A DNA stretch of 64,000 nucleotides from a virus: IMG/VR virus record IMGVR_UViG_3300049044_000138; one strand, given 5' to 3'. Both the position numbers and the translations under genes were made by a program. A model generated the notes under the pieces. It did not search any database, was not told the DNA's origin, and worked only from the letters and a program-made list of their open reading frames with translations. Positions within the stretch are counted from its first letter, which is position 1, and each line of letters opens with the position of its first letter. Below are positions 26,608 to 37,881 of the stretch, one piece after another.

Positions 26608-26745
26608 TCACGCCTCTACCTTCTTCCATTCGATGGATTTCACCCGCCGCCAGATCCCGCCGTCGCGGATGGACACTGCCAAACGGTTTGCCTGCACATC
26701 GACCGCAGCCACGCGCACCAGCTTCACCTTGCCCATGTCCAGCAT
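26608..26745 (-). CDS. Small hypothetical protein, 45 aa (not in the ORF track)
   Basis: TGATG coupling to the cro stop; MLDMGKVKLVRVAAVD...KKVEA. Confidence 0.55.
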   Translation of the reverse strand: MLDMGKVKLVRVAAVDVQANRLAVSIRDGGIWRRVKSIEWKKVEA

Positions 26746-26984
26746 CACTCACCCCCTCCGATATTTTGATCTGAGCTATCGGGTGACGGAACCTGTTCCG
26801 CATCCGTATCAAGAGGCCACGGAAGCCCTTCGGCCTTCGCGGCGAGTTTCAGATGGGCGAGACGCGAAAGGGGAATGCCATTTTTCCGCCAGCTGTGGAC
26901 AGTCGAGGGGGGCACCAAGGTCATGCGCGAAACCGCAGTCGTCCCGCCCAATCCGTCGATAATATGGTTCGCTTCGTCGCTCAT
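26745..26984 (-). CDS. cro: Cro-like repressor
   Basis: IIDGLGGTTAVSRMTLVPPSTVHSWRKNGIP HTH; divergent from cI. Confidence 0.85.
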   Translation of the reverse strand: MSDEANHIIDGLGGTTAVSRMTLVPPSTVHSWRKNGIPLSRLAHLKLAAKAEGLPWPLDTDAEQVPSPDSSDQNIGGGE

Positions 26985-26995
26985 GGTCCGAGCTA

Positions 26996-27057
26996 TGCGA
27001 TAATCGCACAGTCTAAGCAAGTGAATTTATGCGACAATAGCAATTGCAGCCATCGCA
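26996..27057. promoter_or_regulatory. Three operator sites between cro and cI
   Basis: TGCGAT-A-ATCGCA (26996-27008), TGCGAC-A-ATAGCA (27030-27042), TGCAGC-C-ATCGCA (27045-27057). Confidence 0.75.
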
Positions 27058-27077: not shown

Positions 27078-27635
27078 ATGGACCCCGAAGAGATCTTACA
27101 GCTGCTGGACGCGCGCGGAATTAGCCAATCCGAGCTGGCGCGACGGATCGACCTTGATCAGGATAAGCTCAACAAATCGCTGCGCGGAAAACGGAAAATC
27201 AGCGTGAAGGAGATGGAGGCCATCAAAGCCGTCTTGATCCAAGAGCATGCGCAGCCTACCCGTTCGATCCCAGTGATAGGTCAGATCTCAGCAGGCAACT
27301 GGCGCGAAGCGATCCAGCATCCGATCGACGCAATCCCCATGCCGGATAGCTCGATCCCGCCCCGCGCATTTGGCCTCCGCGTCAGTGGCGATTCGATGGA
27401 TCTCTTGGTCGATGATGGCGCGCTGATCATCGTGGACCCGGATGACCGGGTCCTCTTCAATGATAGATATTACGCTGTTTTGAACGCAGACGGCGAAGCC
27501 ACGTTCAAGCAATTTAAGACCGACCCCGCTCGGCTCGCGCCTTGCTCGACAAACCCCGCCCATCGCGAGATCGTTCTGGGTGATGAGTTCTATGAGGTGA
27601 TCGGCCGGATAATCTGGCGCGCCTCTCGGATGTAA
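27078..27635 (+). CDS. cI: CI repressor (HTH + S24 autopeptidase)
   Basis: ISQSELARRI HTH; Ala-Gly cleavage site (ISAGNW); GDSM and TFKQ Ser-Lys dyad; start 27078 or 27057. Confidence 0.92.
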   Translation: MDPEEILQLLDARGISQSELARRIDLDQDKLNKSLRGKRKISVKEMEAIKAVLIQEHAQPTRSIPVIGQISAGNWREAIQHPIDAIPMPDSSIPPRAFGLRVSGDSMDLLVDDGALIIVDPDDRVLFNDRYYAVLNADGEATFKQFKTDPARLAPCSTNPAHREIVLGDEFYEVIGRIIWRASRM

Positions 27636-27855
27636 TCAGCTCCTGCACTTGCTCCTGCGTCATGCCGATCTCATCCGGCCGAACCTCCTTCACCTGAATG
27701 TCGCCAGGGACCACATCAAAGTAGCTTCCCCACTCATCGAAGGCGCCCAATCCGGCCGCAACGGCCTCCCGTCGCGCCTGCATTAGCCGAAGCCGCCAAG
27801 GCCCCACAGGCTTACCAAACGACACCACGCGATAGGCATTGATCTTCGTGAACAT
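27514..27855 (-). CDS. Hypothetical protein convergent with and overlapping the cI 3' end; SOS box upstream
   Basis: ATG 27855 after AGGGTGAG; YRVVSFGKPVGPWR...GLGAFDEWG; 122-nt antisense overlap with cI. Confidence 0.7.
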   Translation of the reverse strand: MFTKINAYRVVSFGKPVGPWRLRLMQARREAVAAGLGAFDEWGSYFDVVPGDIQVKEVRPDEIGMTQEQVQELITSERRARLSGRSPHRTHHPERSRDGRGLSSKARAERGRS

Positions 27856-27892
27856 TCTCGACTCACCCTGTCTCTGAGAAGGCCCGGAATAA

Positions 27893-27907
27893 GAACAAAG
27901 ATTGAAC
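27893..27907. promoter_or_regulatory. Alphaproteobacterial LexA box
   Basis: GAAC-AAAGATT-GAAC (GTTC-N7-GTTC on minus), just downstream of a minus-strand TTGATA (27916-27911). Confidence 0.75.
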
Positions 27908-27929
27908 AAATATCAACGGCATGCCGCCG

Positions 27930-27984
27930 CTATGCGATCATCGCATAGATATATATTGACAGATGTATTGCGATAATCGCATAG
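27930..27984 (+). promoter_or_regulatory. Operator-flanked promoter of the rightward accessory/int operon
   Basis: Perfect palindrome CTATGCGAT-C-ATCGCATAG (27930-27948), TTGACA (27956-27961), TGCGAT-A-ATCGCA (27969-27981). Confidence 0.75.
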
Positions 27985-28013: not shown

Positions 28014-28463
28014 TTGCTTCAGGTCGAAAACTCCTTTCCATTTCCCGGCAGCGTCGCATTGCTGCACGGATTGCGCTGGCGCGTGCTCAGCCATGCAGCT
28101 GATCAAACTGCGCTCCTGAGCCGCATCGGCCCCAACACTGCACTGACGCGTCGCGCACCGATCGGCGATCTAGTCGATCCAAAGATCGCAGACGAGAACG
28201 CGATCATCGCGCTCACCGACGCGAGCGAGGCGAGCGCTCGCATTGGCCTGTTCATTGCCCGCCACCTGCGCGACGCCAACGAGATCGCCATGGCGACCCT
28301 ACGCCGGCAACTGGCTGAAGCCGCCCGCGAGGGGCGCATTCCCGACCCCCGCGACAACTTCCAGATCGCCATGCTCCTGCGCCGTCTGGGCTGGCGCAAG
28401 GCAGGCTACGTCCAGGACAGCGGGGGCATGACCGCCCGCTACGTTCGGAGCGCCGCGAAGTGA
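28014..28463 (+). CDS. Hypothetical protein
   Basis: TTG start after a GGAGG RBS; LLRRLGWRK C-terminal HTH-like segment. Confidence 0.65.
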   Translation: MLQVENSFPFPGSVALLHGLRWRVLSHAADQTALLSRIGPNTALTRRAPIGDLVDPKIADENAIIALTDASEASARIGLFIARHLRDANEIAMATLRRQLAEAAREGRIPDPRDNFQIAMLLRRLGWRKAGYVQDSGGMTARYVRSAAK

Positions 28464-29592: not shown

Positions 29593-29801
29593 ACGCGTTC
29601 AGCGTCCTCGATCTCGCGCTGGCCATTGCCGAAGACATGGCGGCAGAGGATGCTGCGCGCGAGTTCGAATCACAGAGAGACTTCACCCATGAGCTGGGCA
29701 CCGGAAGGCACCCGCGTCGCAATCTACGCGCGCTTCAGCACGGACATGCAGAACGCCCTAAGCGCCGAGGATCAGATCAGGCTCTGTCGAGCCTACGCTG
29801 A
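29589..29801 (+). CDS. Small ORF overlapping the integrase start
   Basis: ATGA coupling to the upstream gene; 70 aa; 3' half overlaps int out of frame. Confidence 0.4.
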   Translation: MNAFSVLDLALAIAEDMAAEDAAREFESQRDFTHELGTGRHPRRNLRALQHGHAERPKRRGSDQALSSLR

Positions 29802-31335
29802 ACGGCAGGGCTGGCAGGTCGTCGACGCCTATTCTGACGCGGCCATTTCAGGACAGAACAAGCACCGCCCCGGGCTGAACGCGATGCTCGCCGCCGCCGA
29901 TCGGCGCGACTTCGATATCGTCCTTTCGGAATCGCTCGACCGTATCGCCCGCGATCTAGGCGACACGGCCGAGATCTACCGCCGCCTGGAGTTCGCCAGG
30001 GTCGCGCTGTTCACCTGCTCCGACAACCGCGTAACCGAACTTCACATCGGCTTCATCGGCACGATGAGCGCCCTCTACGTGAAGGAGCTGGGCAGCAAGA
30101 TCCGCCGAGGCGGGAAGGGGCAGGTCGGACGCGGCCGAGTGCCGGGCGGCCGCTGCTATGGCTATGACGTGACGCCGGTCGTGAACAGCGACGGATCGGT
30201 CGAGTTCGGGCACCGCGCCATCAATGAGGAAGAGGCCGCGGTCGTCCGCCGGATCTTCCGGGAATATGCCGAAGGCGTCCCGCCTCGCACCATCGCCCAC
30301 AAGTTGAACGCGGAAGGCGTCCCTTCGCCGCGCGGCACCGAATGGCGCGCAAGCACCATCAACGGGTCGGCAGCACGTGACTATGGCATCCTGCGCAACC
30401 CGATCTATGTCGGTCGCATCCGCTACGGCCGCGTCCGCATGGTGCGCGACCCCAATTCCCGCAAGCGGCTGTCGCGGGTCGACGTCCAGCCGGACATTGT
30501 CGAGGGCGAAGCGCCACACCTGCGCATCATCGACGATGCGCTCTGGTCGATCGTCCAGGAGCGGAAAGAAGATCTCGCCCATGTCCCGTTCCATCGGCAG
30601 CGCCGGGCGCGGCATGTGTTGAGCGGCCTGGTCCGGTGCGGATGCGGCGGCACTTATACGATAGTGTCGAAAGACCGTTGGGCCTGCTCCCGGCATAAGG
30701 AGGCGGGCACCTGCGACAATGGCCGCCGGATCTCCACCGGCCGCCTTGAACAGCGGGTTCTATCCGGCCTGCAGGACCGGCTCCTAGATCCGGAGATCAT
30801 CCGCGCAGTGGTGAAACGTTATCATGATGCGCGGACGCAAGCGCGAGCAAAACTCCAGTCTTCGCGCTACCGGGCAGAGGAACGGGTCGACCAGCTGAAG
30901 GGCGAGATCCGCAACCTGGTCAACGCGATCGCCGCCGGTGCCGACATGGATGAAGTGAAAGAAGCGCTGAAGGACCGCAAGGCAGCGCTCGCGTCGGCCG
31001 AAGCCGCCTTGGCCGAGCATGAAGCCGTCCCGGCCATCATCCTGCATCCACAGATCGTCGAAGCATACCGGCGCAAGATCCGCCAGCTGGGCGACGCGCT
31101 CACCAGTGGCGAGCAGGCACAGAAATATCTCCCGATGATCCGCGACCTGGTCGAGGCCGTGATTGTGCGGGATGACGAAAACGCGCCCGATCGCGCGTCC
31201 CTGGAGCTGGTCGGAAATCTGTCAGCAGTGCTTGCGATCGCGACAGGAAAGCCTGTGCCAATGAAGCGGACTGTAAAGGTGGTAGCGGAGGAACGTTACC
31301 GCCTCGACAGTCCGCTGAAGAAGTTCCGGGTTTAG
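29689..31335 (+). CDS. int: Large serine integrase
   Basis: AIYARFST catalytic Ser; SESLDRIAR; recombinase domain (GRCYGY, LRNPIYVG); zinc ribbon (CGCGG...C...C); coiled coil; likely start 29689. Confidence 0.95.
   Translation: MSWAPEGTRVAIYARFSTDMQNALSAEDQIRLCRAYAERQGWQVVDAYSDAAISGQNKHRPGLNAMLAAADRRDFDIVLSESLDRIARDLGDTAEIYRRLEFARVALFTCSDNRVTELHIGFIGTMSALYVKELGSKIRRGGKGQVGRGRVPGGRCYGYDVTPVVNSDGSVEFGHRAINEEEAAVVRRIFREYAEGVPPRTIAHKLNAEGVPSPRGTEWRASTINGSAARDYGILRNPIYVGRIRYGRVRMVRDPNSRKRLSRVDVQPDIVEGEAPHLRIIDDALWSIVQERKEDLAHVPFHRQRRARHVLSGLVRCGCGGTYTIVSKDRWACSRHKEAGTCDNGRRISTGRLEQRVLSGLQDRLLDPEIIRAVVKRYHDARTQARAKLQSSRYRAEERVDQLKGEIRNLVNAIAAGADMDEVKEALKDRKAALASAEAALAEHEAVPAIILHPQIVEAYRRKIRQLGDALTSGEQAQKYLPMIRDLVEAVIVRDDENAPDRASLELVGNLSAVLAIATGKPVPMKRTVKVVAEERYRLDSPLKKFRV
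31265..31316. other. Putative attP inside the integrase 3' end
   Basis: Imperfect 52-bp palindrome AGCGGACTGT-AA-AGGTGGTAGCG-GAGGAA-CGTTACCGCCT-CG-ACAGTCCGCT centred on GG 31290/31291; minus strand TCCTCCGCTACCA resembles a tRNA 3' end. Confidence 0.75.
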
Positions 31336-35031: not shown

Positions 35032-37881
35032 TCACCTCTTCACGATGTCGATCGAAATTTCGCCGGACCAATTGTAGCTCCAGCTGCCTGCAGCTGGCGG
35101 GTAGGCTGCAACGTCGAGTGCCAGCACATAGAGATCCCCGGCCGCCGGCGATGTCGTGGAATGTTGCAGCGCCGCCGCCATGTCGACGTTCGTCCAATTG
35201 GCGAGCGTTGCATTCTTGCCCGTGACAGAGCCGCCCGAGGATGACGGATTGCGGTTCGTTCCGCTGGCACTGGCGAGATAGCTCGCCGCATTGGCAGCGG
35301 GGACGCGATAGACCCGCAGCACCGGATATCCCGGCGTCGGCCCGCCGGTATATTTCACCTGCCCGAACGCGGCGATCTTGATGCCAGTCACCCCCGACGG
35401 CAGCGAACCGACCGTGACATAGGCCAGTTCGTGGATAGTCGTGAACGCGGCCGCCGATCCTGAGTTGGAGGCGATCGTGAGCGAGATGACCGATCCGGCG
35501 ACCAGCGATTGCGTGCTGGCTTTGCCGTCCTTCAGCGAACCGTCGCTGTTCAAGCCGTTGTTCGCCGCCGCCGCGCCGGATGCGACCGTGCTGGCGGCCG
35601 CGCCGCTCACCGTGCCAGTGACATCACCGGCGAAGGCAACGCTGCTGGCAGGCCGATAGGGGTTCTCACCAGCGGCAGAGGGCTTCACCCAAGCCGACTG
35701 GATGATGCCAGCCGCGTTCACATCGGGATCGACCATCCGATAGGCGCGAACGGCGAAGGTGTAATAGCTGGTCGGCTCGGCACCATAGAGGATGAAGGCT
35801 CGCTTGCCTGCCGCCATGAAGAAGGTTTGCTCGGCCGCTGGTGTTGCACCGACCGTGTAGGCCGCCGAGCTGGTCGAGGCATAGACCAGGATCTCGAACC
35901 CATCGATGTCGCTTTCCGTGCCGCCCCAGACCCATTCAAAGCTGATATCGGCCGACCCGCCGGAGTTGATCGCATGATCTACCGCACTGCCGTCGGTGAC
36001 GATCGTCGGCGCTACCGGCGTTGTGCCCAGCCGATCATTCCGAGCATTGAAGTTCGTCGCCGTGGTGGTGAGCAGCGCCGCCTGCGTCGCCGTCGCGCCG
36101 TAGGTTGCCGCAGCGACCCAGGCGGACCCGCTCCAATAGTCCATCTGGACCGGGCTGAGATAAGCCCGCACCAGCACATCCCCGATATCGGTTCCCGTCG
36201 GCACCGGATCGGATGCCGAATACATAGTGAAGATGACCGCCTTGCTGTCGGCCAGATTCGACGCTGCAGTCGCTGCCGCCAGCGCATTCGTAATGCGCTG
36301 GTCACCCACCGGGGCCCAGGGCAGGATGACATAACTTCCGCCGAGCAGGATGGCGTTGCCGCCGATCGACAGCCTGCCGCTGCCGGCGACGCGAACATAG
36401 GTGGCGATGATATTGCCGCTGCCGTCCGTCTGCTGCCACCAGTCATTTTCCTGACTTTCATCGGCGGTCGGCGCGGTCGGCTGCGTAAACACGATGCGCT
36501 TCGCGTCCACCACCGTTGTCAGGTCATCGAGCAGCGCCTCGATCGACGCGCCCGAGCTGGTGACAGCCACGACGGCATTCGACAGGCGCTGCCAGTCGGT
36601 GTTCGCGTCTGTAGGCGCGGAATTGGCCGTCGGCACCGTTGCGACGAAGAGCCATTGCGACCCGTCGCTCAGCGAGACGACATCGCCCTCGCGATAGACG
36701 GTGGCCGCATCATACTGTCCCATGGGCGCGTTCAGGTTGAAAGCGATATCGCTGGAGCTATGCACCTGCCACGTCGGCACCGCGCCTTGCGCCAGCCGCC
36801 AATAGGGGGCGGCGATCGAGATCTGTTCGACACTGGCAACCGGAGGCAAAGCCGACCCGTCGGCCGCCATGGTGGTGGACGCCGTGCCGATGCCGATCGC
36901 GGCGACGCGCAGAACGCCTAGCCAGTCGACGAAGGCGACAGCATTAACGCTGGCAGCTATCCGCTGGATCAGCTCGCGCGCCGTCGTCTGCGCGGTCACC
37001 ATCAGCGACAGGTTCCACGGCCGCGCACTGTTCAGCGCCGTCATGTCGGAGGTCGAGAACTTGCCCACGCCGCCGGCGATCGTCGCCACGCGCTGGATCA
37101 GCGCCCCCGGCAGGCGCGACCAGCCGCCAACGGCGTCGCCGTTGGCATGGAAGCAAACCATGCCGTCCGCCGGTGCCCCGAAGCGCACATAGCCACCGGC
37201 CAAGGATGTCGCCCACTGGCCGCGCTGCACTGTCGCTGCCTTCAGGGCCGCGAAGCTGGCATAGTCGCCGATCGCCGCGCCGAAGCGTGTCAGACGATCG
37301 AAGGCCAGCGACACGCCGCCAATCAGCCCATAGGCCGAGATCTGATAGATGTTGTCCACCGCGTCGACCAGGACGCCGGGCGCGAAGCGTGGCGCGCCCA
37401 GCGCGAGCGGCTTCGCCGTGCCCTGCAGATCTGTCGAACCTTCAGCCCCGCCGGTCCCGGCATAGGTCGCCAGCAGCGGCTGATCGAGCCAGCTGTCGTC
37501 GGTGCCGATGCTGACCGTCGCGATGCCGTTGGCGATCTCCGGCTGCTCTTTCACCCGGCCGTCAAACTTCAGCGTGAACGCAGCCCACGCGTCGCCCAAA
37601 TTGCCCTGCCAAATCCGCACGCGCGCATCGTGAATTGCCAGCGCAGGCAGGTTCGGAATGGAGCCGAAGTTGACCGTGAGCGAGCCCGAGGGAGAGGTGA
37701 TCGACTTGGGATCGAAGCCACCGTCGAAGAAGTCATAGCGCAGCTTCGGCAGCGTCGCGATCGCGGGCCACCATACTTGCCCGTTCAAATGGCAAAGCCG
37801 CTCATCGTCATGGCTGGCAAGGCATAGGGGAACGGCCGTGGAACCGCTCCACGCGTCGATTTGCACAAGATAGGCGATCAT
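35032..37881 (-). CDS. Central tail tip/host-specificity protein, 949 aa
   Basis: ATGA overlap; tail-hub N-terminus; CBM5/12-like segment; FnIII-like YTFAVRAY; beta-rich C-terminus. Confidence 0.8.
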   Translation of the reverse strand: MIAYLVQIDAWSGSTAVPLCLASHDDERLCHLNGQVWWPAIATLPKLRYDFFDGGFDPKSITSPSGSLTVNFGSIPNLPALAIHDARVRIWQGNLGDAWAAFTLKFDGRVKEQPEIANGIATVSIGTDDSWLDQPLLATYAGTGGAEGSTDLQGTAKPLALGAPRFAPGVLVDAVDNIYQISAYGLIGGVSLAFDRLTRFGAAIGDYASFAALKAATVQRGQWATSLAGGYVRFGAPADGMVCFHANGDAVGGWSRLPGALIQRVATIAGGVGKFSTSDMTALNSARPWNLSLMVTAQTTARELIQRIAASVNAVAFVDWLGVLRVAAIGIGTASTTMAADGSALPPVASVEQISIAAPYWRLAQGAVPTWQVHSSSDIAFNLNAPMGQYDAATVYREGDVVSLSDGSQWLFVATVPTANSAPTDANTDWQRLSNAVVAVTSSGASIEALLDDLTTVVDAKRIVFTQPTAPTADESQENDWWQQTDGSGNIIATYVRVAGSGRLSIGGNAILLGGSYVILPWAPVGDQRITNALAAATAASNLADSKAVIFTMYSASDPVPTGTDIGDVLVRAYLSPVQMDYWSGSAWVAAATYGATATQAALLTTTATNFNARNDRLGTTPVAPTIVTDGSAVDHAINSGGSADISFEWVWGGTESDIDGFEILVYASTSSAAYTVGATPAAEQTFFMAAGKRAFILYGAEPTSYYTFAVRAYRMVDPDVNAAGIIQSAWVKPSAAGENPYRPASSVAFAGDVTGTVSGAAASTVASGAAAANNGLNSDGSLKDGKASTQSLVAGSVISLTIASNSGSAAAFTTIHELAYVTVGSLPSGVTGIKIAAFGQVKYTGGPTPGYPVLRVYRVPAANAASYLASASGTNRNPSSSGGSVTGKNATLANWTNVDMAAALQHSTTSPAAGDLYVLALDVAAYPPAAGSWSYNWSGEISIDIVKR

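Follow-up and report, generated by a model that had tools for sequence, protein, structure and literature searches.

A predicted LexA-controlled small gene that converges on cI in a Sphingomonas-type temperate phage

IMG/VR virus record IMGVR_UViG_3300049044_000138 was analysed over a stretch of 64,000 nt, referred to here as the window. At issue is a 113-codon open reading frame (ORF), ORF113, that runs head-on into the 3′ end of the cI repressor gene and is preceded by a candidate operator of the host SOS repressor, LexA. The window comprises the complete 39,344-bp genome of a temperate phage in 1.5 copies, the list of ORFs recurring at that offset. It contains no host DNA, and the host type of the phage is a Sphingomonas-type bacterium. 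From left to right, the immunity region consists of a cro-like gene, two operators, cI, ORF113, a 158-bp control region with two operators and a rightward operon (Table 1). The cI gene and ORF113 sit between two divergent early operons, both of which are repressible by CI. This is the slot that rex occupies in phage lambda, with the difference that ORF113 points at cI and rex does not. A BLAST search of the region against phage and plasmid records returned no match.

Table 1. Positions of ORF113, its control sequences and the surrounding immunity genes and operators in the window.
Feature	Position	Strand	Remarks
ORF113	27855..27514	−	113 codons; ATG at 27855, stop 27516..27514
ORF113 codons 1–73, outside cI	27636..27855	−	Conserved core domain (residues 5–58) and start of helix
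ORF113 codons 74–113 and stop, antisense to cI	27514..27635	−	End of helix (to about residue 83), then disordered Arg-rich tail
SOS box GTTC-N7-GTTC, candidate LexA operator	27893..27907	−	GAAC-N7-GAAC on the plus strand; would cover the spacer and the edge of the candidate −10
−35 hexamer TTGATA of the predicted ORF113 promoter	27911..27916	−	Invariant in the close loci
Candidate −10 CTTATT	27888..27893	−	17 nt after the −35; weak; CCTAAT in the Sphingobium faniae relative
GANTC (CcrM) site TGAGTCG	27859..27865	−	Shortly before the start codon; lies within the conserved GGTGAGTCGAG leader
cI repressor gene	27078..27635	+	HTH_3 and Peptidase_S24 (Pfam PF00717, E 4e-20); phrog_4
Two CI operators	27930..27984; cores 27933–27945 and 27969–27981		Flank the −35 TTGACA (27956–27961) of the rightward early promoter
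Operator pair between cro-like gene and cI	Perfect core 26996–27008; 2-mismatch copy 27030–27042		Pattern search
cro-like small DNA-binding gene	26745..26984	−	phrog_8008 DNA-binding protein, E 4e-13; divergent from cI; heads the leftward early operon
First gene of the rightward operon	28014..28463	+	Last gene of the operon is a serine integrase (29626–31335)

ORF113 as a coding gene and its overlap with cI

To the left, ORF113 ends within cI: the two genes overlap by 122 nt, and the 3′ end of ORF113 is antisense to the last 40 codons of cI, whose stop codon lies at 27633–27635. The stop coordinates (27514 and 27635, respectively) bear out the overlap described in an earlier, sequence-only reading of the window. 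Homologues of ORF113 were found in a protein collection (eight, at 68–96% identity), in two viral contigs and in a prophage of Sphingobium faniae. Overall, their identities to ORF113 ranged from 49 to 96%, and the complete copies that could be read from DNA were exactly 113 codons long in all eight loci. In codons 1–73, which lie outside cI, changes concentrate at codon position 3 (e.g. 10, 9 and 40 changes at positions 1, 2 and 3) and the ratio of nonsynonymous to synonymous substitution rates (dN/dS) was 0.06–0.34 over 21 pairs. From this comparison, ORF113 is almost certainly a genuine protein-coding phage gene. A TTG at 27909, which would extend it to 131 codons, was rejected as the start, being upstream of the conserved promoter and box.

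Codons 74–113 behaved differently from codons 1–73. More specifically, their changes fall at position 2 of the ORF113 codons, which is the wobble position of cI, and the apparent dN/dS exceeds 1. The substitutions in this segment follow the cI wobble; it is therefore cI, and not any need of ORF113 itself, that shapes the tail. One cI isoleucine codon, ATA, is nevertheless kept in all eight loci though neighbouring wobble positions vary freely. In this phage, isoleucine is encoded by ATC, ATT and ATA in 86, 12 and 2% of cases, respectively, and ATC or ATT at the Ile-Ile near the C-terminus of CI would place TGA or TAA in the antisense frame. Similarly, a Val-Ile of cI is encoded with GTG and never with GTC or GTT in any of the loci, while GTT does occur where the next codon begins with G. 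When synonymous cI codons were resampled according to phage codon usage, the antisense frame was open in only 0.5–2% of trials per sequence. The two guarded codons correspond to ORF113 residues 82 and 86, the first where a predicted helix (residues 67–83) ends and the second shortly beyond it. Past residue 87, the frame is open by chance about 90% of the time, and it ends where the Phe-Lys of cI forces a stop.

The choice of a rare ATA and of GTG suggests that the antisense frame is actively kept open into cI. Our reading is that selection guards ORF113 through its C-terminal helix and that the Arg-rich tail (isoelectric point of 11.9) is a free rider. The ATA codon was also considered as part of an additional CI operator. 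This was rejected: only 7 of 13 operator positions match, the site is absent at two or fewer mismatches, and two loci alter the neighbouring codon.

Conservation of the SOS box and its association with the small gene

On the minus strand, the sequence upstream of ORF113 reads TTGATA, 3 nt, GTTC, 7 nt, GTTC, 37 nt and the ATG at 27855. The sequence-only reading had placed the direct repeat just downstream of TTGATA, as it is, and 38 nt upstream of the ORF, where the distance is 37 nt. It had also placed a CI-type operator 14 bp beyond the −35; such an operator is present, and its palindrome (27930–27948) ends 13 bp away. This operator belongs first to the divergent rightward promoter, so that its presence can be explained without a CI input on the ORF113 promoter.

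To either side of the promoter, the sequences of related loci have diverged. In six close loci, a 29-bp block, CGTTGATATTTGTTCAA-nn-TTTGTTCTTA, which contains the −35 hexamer and both GTTC half-sites, is invariant save for two central spacer positions, and about half of the flanking intergenic DNA is changed. In homologues at 35–55% identity, GTTC-N7-GTTC is found 13–50 nt before the start codon; the spacers, the −35 sequences (TTGATC, TTGACG and TTGAGC in distant loci) and, in some, the CI operators differ. The box is thus fixed while the phage's own operators change, a pattern more in keeping with a host factor than with a regulator encoded by the phage. The box occurred in each of the 13 distinct loci with a homologue convergent to a CI-type S24 gene, its chance occurrence being approximately 0.001 per 100 nt, and in 8 of 19 genomic matches to the family, where about 0.03 were expected. 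The number of boxes in the window is not above chance (two in 64 kb, with 1.5 expected; 40 of 100 shuffles reached two), and the second, at 37830, lies inside a 959-codon ORF and was taken as a chance occurrence. We therefore take the box upstream of ORF113 to be real on the basis of its conservation at the orthologous position in relatives, and not on its count.

A survey of 301 Sphingomonadaceae genomes yielded 14 loci with a repressor of this CI family. All five that carry the small gene have a convergent box 209–394 nt past the cI stop codon, and none of the nine that lack it has a box within 600 nt. The box thus goes with the small gene and not with cI. The small gene is convergent with cI in every CI-linked locus, in which the two genes overlap by 122, 84, 62, 41 or 15 nt or are separated by a gap of 4 or approximately 150 nt. 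Accordingly, the claim that the gene is transcribed head-on into cI stands as regards orientation; overlap of the coding sequences is not universal. Terminator scans detected no intrinsic terminator between the convergent genes, nor in or after ORF113. The module is carried by otherwise different phages: in L001 (ENA contig k119_12212) and L017 (a Hadza gut metagenome contig), the integrase is a tyrosine integrase as opposed to the serine integrase of the window, and the other early genes also differ; L001, for example, encodes a DNA methylase and L017 a DnaN clamp. Since cI and the small gene are common to these phages, the module seems to move as a unit. By comparison, then, the box is conserved and the gene is linked to this CI family.

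GTTC-N7-GTTC is the LexA site of Caulobacter and the Alphaproteobacteria (PMC9578287; PMC7987155). Sphingobium faniae, whose related prophage contributes one of the CI-linked loci with the box, provided a genome in which this could be examined. The prophage lies on contig FMTU01000007.1 at about 182–189 kb. Its CI is 76% identical to that of the window, and in the S. faniae genome GTTC-N7-GTTC lies directly upstream of lexA, recA and radA and is 2.5 times as frequent as a reversed control. Together with the orthologous conservation, these data uphold the proposal that the box is an alphaproteobacterial SOS operator. LexA control of ORF113 is well supported by the comparison, and we regard it as very probable.

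The leader between the box and the start codon contains a further motif. A GANTC site of the form YGA[G/A/C]TCG was present there in 15 of 17 box-bearing loci (L001–L004, L006, L008, L017, L019, L020, L025, L027, L028, L033, L039 and L057), as compared to approximately 0.14 expected per leader. TGAGTCG, the version in the window, is the third-ranked methylated heptamer bound by GcrA in Caulobacter (PMC4647560). The site may provide a replication-state or GcrA input on the ORF113 promoter, or may merely be a motif tied to the ribosome-binding site.

The GPWR family and the CI repressor

We named the family of ORF113 GPWR after its invariant Trp-Arg. A profile of the core domain, matching residues 5–58, retrieved 83 clusters at E<1e-3 among 1.8 billion representatives, mostly of 57–125 residues. 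The consensus is YR-x3-FG-x-P-x-GPWR ... DA-x3-GLG-x-YDE-x-G-x-F ... VPG-x-I, in which Trp20-Arg21 is invariant, and the 55-residue domain is retained down to 30–40% identity across the 83 clusters. ORF113 had no match in Pfam, PHROGs, NCBIfam, PADLOC or an ESM Atlas feature search, and none of 81 family members had a match in Pfam. A profile search of the Protein Data Bank (PDB) with the ORF113 family likewise returned nothing. The family is present in 16 of the 301 Sphingomonadaceae genomes; in a sample of 400 other alphaproteobacterial genomes, no member was found besides the centre genome.

According to AlphaFold2 with a deep alignment, ORF113 consists of a beta-beta-alpha-beta-beta-beta domain followed by a long helix, predicted with a predicted local distance difference test (pLDDT) score of 90. 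In AlphaFold modelling, residues 85–113 come out disordered, the tail having a pLDDT below 50. Foldseek found nothing in the PDB at E≤0.001, and the best VIA-align match, to a 45-residue zinc finger of an archaeal virus (Z of 4.5), is within noise. Searches of AlphaFold database clusters and of the Atlas yielded only uncharacterised relatives of 60–80 residues, plus weak matches (template modelling scores of 0.42–0.44) to parts of polyvalent proteins.

Some members of the family occur in other settings. Two very long proteins, P0009 (1562 aa) and P0089 (1906 aa), contain 12 and 7 matches, respectively, to profile positions 36–83, which take in the C-terminal part of the core and the helix that follows it. 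They may be repeat proteins, or the translation of repeats may have produced them artefactually. S. faniae encodes two further distant members, L039 and L040 (G001:C52:338456-338659 and G001:C60:188557-188742), one of which has its own GTTC-N7-GTTC 35 nt upstream. Each is 6–8 kb from a 109-codon frame that matches the DNA-binding domain of LexA (C52:330181 and C60:194552), and their surroundings may be other mobile elements with repressors that resemble the LexA N-terminal domain.

The CI of the window retains Ala72-Gly73, Ser106 (in GDSM) and Lys144 (in TFK), as judged from alignment to T. maritima LexA (3k2z) and from a family alignment, in agreement with the earlier proposal that the Ala-Gly site and the Ser-Lys dyad are intact. 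By its domains and residues, CI is a repressor of the self-cleaving CI/LexA type, cleavage itself being predicted. Three CI genes that are linked to an ORF113 homologue depart from the self-cleaving pattern: the cleavage site is Ala-Arg in L022 (G266) and Ala-Ser in L023 (G198), and the catalytic Lys is replaced by Gln in L002 (2132–2710, minus strand). All three retain the Ser and the remaining S24 domain. Among relatives of CI that occur without the small gene, nine of nine keep Ala/Cys-Gly. This distribution hints that CI cleavage may be dispensable where the small gene is present.

A comparison of the ORF113 and CI profiles gave a single local match, between residues 17–26 of ORF113 (the GPWR hairpin) and residues 72–81 of CI (AGNWRE). 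It spans 10 columns with an E of 0.23 and a probability of 0.3%, and does not constitute evidence. The hairpin may imitate the cleavage-site loop of CI (A-G-N-W-R), a resemblance without statistical support.

A proposed switch and its alternatives

We propose that ORF113 is a second route by which the SOS response reaches the immunity switch. In the lysogen, host LexA bound to GTTC-N7-GTTC would shut the ORF113 promoter while CI is expressed from its own, probably on a transcript that also runs antisense across ORF113. Upon DNA damage, RecA* would make LexA self-cleave, and the ORF113 promoter would fire. The most likely site of action of the resulting small basic protein is the immunity switch, where it would serve as an antirepressor or assist in inactivating CI. 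Concurrently, polymerase and ribosomes would run head-on into the 3′ end of cI and could lower CI re-synthesis by collision or antisense pairing, the 122-nt overlap being covered if the predicted transcript spans its own ORF. RecA-stimulated cleavage of CI itself would still be possible, such that the SOS signal would arrive by two routes. The predicted elements of this scheme comprise binding by LexA, induction by SOS, the target of the protein and an effect in favour of prophage induction. DNA damage probably does reach the lysis/lysogeny switch by two routes, an antirepressor or antisense action on cI is plausible, and the balance of the evidence tips towards a protein that acts on the switch. 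The full pro-induction model seems to us evenly poised between right and wrong.

LexA-controlled antirepressors are an established class that includes Tum of coliphage 186, AntC of N15 and GfoA, GfhA and GftA of the Salmonella Gifsy prophages (PMC3121763). Like these, ORF113 is a small phage gene with its own promoter under a host LexA operator, the latter predicted here by comparison, and is linked to the lysis/lysogeny decision. In those systems, expression is started by cleavage of LexA and not of the phage repressor, and the same design is proposed for ORF113. Nevertheless, ORF113 is similar to none of them in sequence or fold and is not a member of those families. Its operator is the alphaproteobacterial direct repeat, and its binding to CI is putative. 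Moreover, the Gifsy genes lie outside the immunity region, whereas ORF113 lies inside it, tail to tail with and overlapping cI. Finally, the repressors of 186, N15 and Gifsy are not self-cleaving, whereas the CI of the window keeps the Ala-Gly, Ser and Lys. We consider the module to be a variant of the Tum-type switch design built on a new protein family.

Resemblances to other systems are more partial. The OOP RNA of lambda, from promoter pO, is likewise transcribed from a promoter with a LexA-binding sequence and is antisense to the 3′ end of the gene for a lysogeny-promoting regulator (PMC5869508; PMC2327240). However, OOP is a short non-coding RNA directed against cII and has its own terminator, whereas ORF113 encodes a protein under purifying selection, faces cI, and is followed by no terminator that we found. 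In the AimX-AimC-AimL module of arbitrium phages, the output under regulation is likewise a gene for a small protein, situated within the repressor/cro module, whose product inactivates the repressor (bioRxiv 10.1101/2025.11.23.689978). That module differs in being governed by AimR peptide signalling in Bacillus phages, and AimX, at 29 aa, is much smaller than the ORF113 protein and unrelated to it in sequence.

A more elaborate version of the proposal can be formulated. In E. coli and lambda, LexA is cleaved sooner than CI-type repressors. The GPWR protein could then be a new kind of SOS-induced antirepressor acting on a repressor that is still self-cleavable, in which an early, low-threshold, LexA-gated input (protein plus head-on transcription) is added to slow CI cleavage to form a feed-forward commitment device, with the GANTC/GcrA-type site adding a replication-state input. 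We regard this version as unlikely.

Several observations count against a role of ORF113 in induction. A strict sigma-70 consensus scan found no promoter upstream of ORF113, and the promoter is for this reason deduced from the invariant TTGATA and the weak −10. The extent of the overlap ranges from 122 nt to none, so not every member of the family could pair in antisense with cI within the coding sequence. In the family and fold searches, ORF113 resembled none of the known antirepressors and matched no recognised fold. An antirepressor is, moreover, not required, since the CI of the window has all the residues for self-cleavage, and nine related CI genes manage without the small gene. The CI variants are few (two of five versus none of nine genomes; Fisher p of about 0.1), and L002 is a metagenome contig of 3.7x coverage. 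One distant member, L055, converges on a repressor operon whose product has only a helix-turn-helix (HTH) domain and is not cleavable, which speaks for the proposal, but this locus has no exact box. Lastly, the expectation that homologues keep both the SOS box and adjacency to cI was borne out in the 13 CI-linked loci; 10 of the 19 genomic matches lie elsewhere, without box or CI. L027, likewise away from a CI gene, adjoins an integrase. Among members that lack CI, the neighbours recognised by Pfam were a transposase, a BLUF protein and one HTH protein, which is uninformative. Because about half of the genomic matches are outside CI contexts, the GPWR domain need not bind CI.

One alternative is that ORF113 is an SOS-timed accessory effector, that is, a LexA-controlled gene whose product acts not on CI but on the host, for example in division, replication, RecA filaments or repair. 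In its favour are the family members away from CI genes, the self-cleavage residues of the window's CI and the related CI genes that work without the small gene. The slot beside cI would then be the usual place for independently transcribed cargo, as it is for rex, and many SOS-box genes of prophages are indeed cargo, such as the dinI homologues of the Gifsy operons (PMC3121763). An effector of this kind would not account as readily for CI-linked copies that always converge on cI and abut or overlap it despite differences in the rest of the phage, for a reading frame that appears to be actively kept open into cI, or for those linked CI genes in which the canonical cleavage site or the catalytic Lys is missing. 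We therefore rate an accessory effector as possible, if somewhat unlikely. Alternatively, the RNA or the act of transcription could be the main effector, the LexA-gated promoter sending polymerases and antisense RNA into cI and the protein being secondary. OOP against cII and the face-to-face promoters of phage 186 are analogues. Head-on orientation in all CI-linked loci and the lack of a detected terminator between the genes are in keeping with this, as is the LexA-binding sequence in the oop promoter region of lambda (PMC5869508); an open frame across the overlap would presumably keep ribosomes on the RNA and guard transcription from Rho. Nonetheless, the strong purifying selection on 73 codons and the conservation of the domain to 30–40% identity indicate that the protein itself is selected, and in lambda the contribution of OOP to the removal of CII following SOS induction was minor at best (PMC2327240). 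A mainly RNA-based action is accordingly quite improbable.

The remaining alternative questions the box itself: the direct repeat could belong to the promoter or be bound by a phage activator, as TTGC-N6-TTGC is by CII of lambda, in which case ORF113 would be under phage and not SOS control. CII-type activators do bind direct repeats near a −35, and the number of boxes in the window is at chance level. However, phages that differ in immunity vary in the spacer, the −35 and the CI operators but share both GTTC half-sites, whereas a phage regulator would be expected to co-vary with its phage. In addition, the repeat follows a good −35 and does not stand astride a poor one, and the same motif precedes lexA, recA and radA in the host of the related prophage. 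Control by such a factor in place of LexA is very improbable.

Prophage induction is taught as depending on either a self-cleaving repressor, as in lambda, or a LexA-controlled antirepressor that acts on a non-cleavable one, as in 186, N15 and Gifsy. The module of the window appears to carry both. It also illustrates how the distal end of a repressor gene can accommodate a small gene, with the repressor paying with a rare codon for the open frame on the opposite strand. A previously uncatalogued protein family gains a regulatory context, the SOS response, and a target that can be tested, CI. The phage switches of this group of bacteria have hardly been studied. Even if the protein does not touch CI, ORF113 would be a new phage-borne member of the SOS regulon. 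Experiments are practical, as a close relative of the module is present in a lysogen available in culture, Sphingobium faniae CGMCC 1.7749.

Some further features of the region and its relatives were noted. The cro-like gene has a homologue at the equivalent position in L001, L002, L004 and L006, and the first gene of the rightward operon, which matched no family in Pfam or PHROGs, has one in L001–L006. A pattern search identified three perfect TGCGAT-N-ATCGCA operator cores, at 26996, 27933 and 27969. On the plus strand, the operator palindrome at 27930–27948 is followed by a T-rich run and scores as an intrinsic-terminator-like site for rightward transcription; the cI mRNA could terminate there, having crossed the whole of ORF113 in antisense. 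In S. faniae, the exact 15-mer of the window, GTTCAATCTTTGTTC, is found inside a near-palindrome at the end of a repeated element (L014, L015 and L016, at the ends of contigs C10, C14 and C27). This end is probably the terminus of an insertion sequence, and the 15-mer there may be a LexA-controlled transposase promoter or a coincidence.

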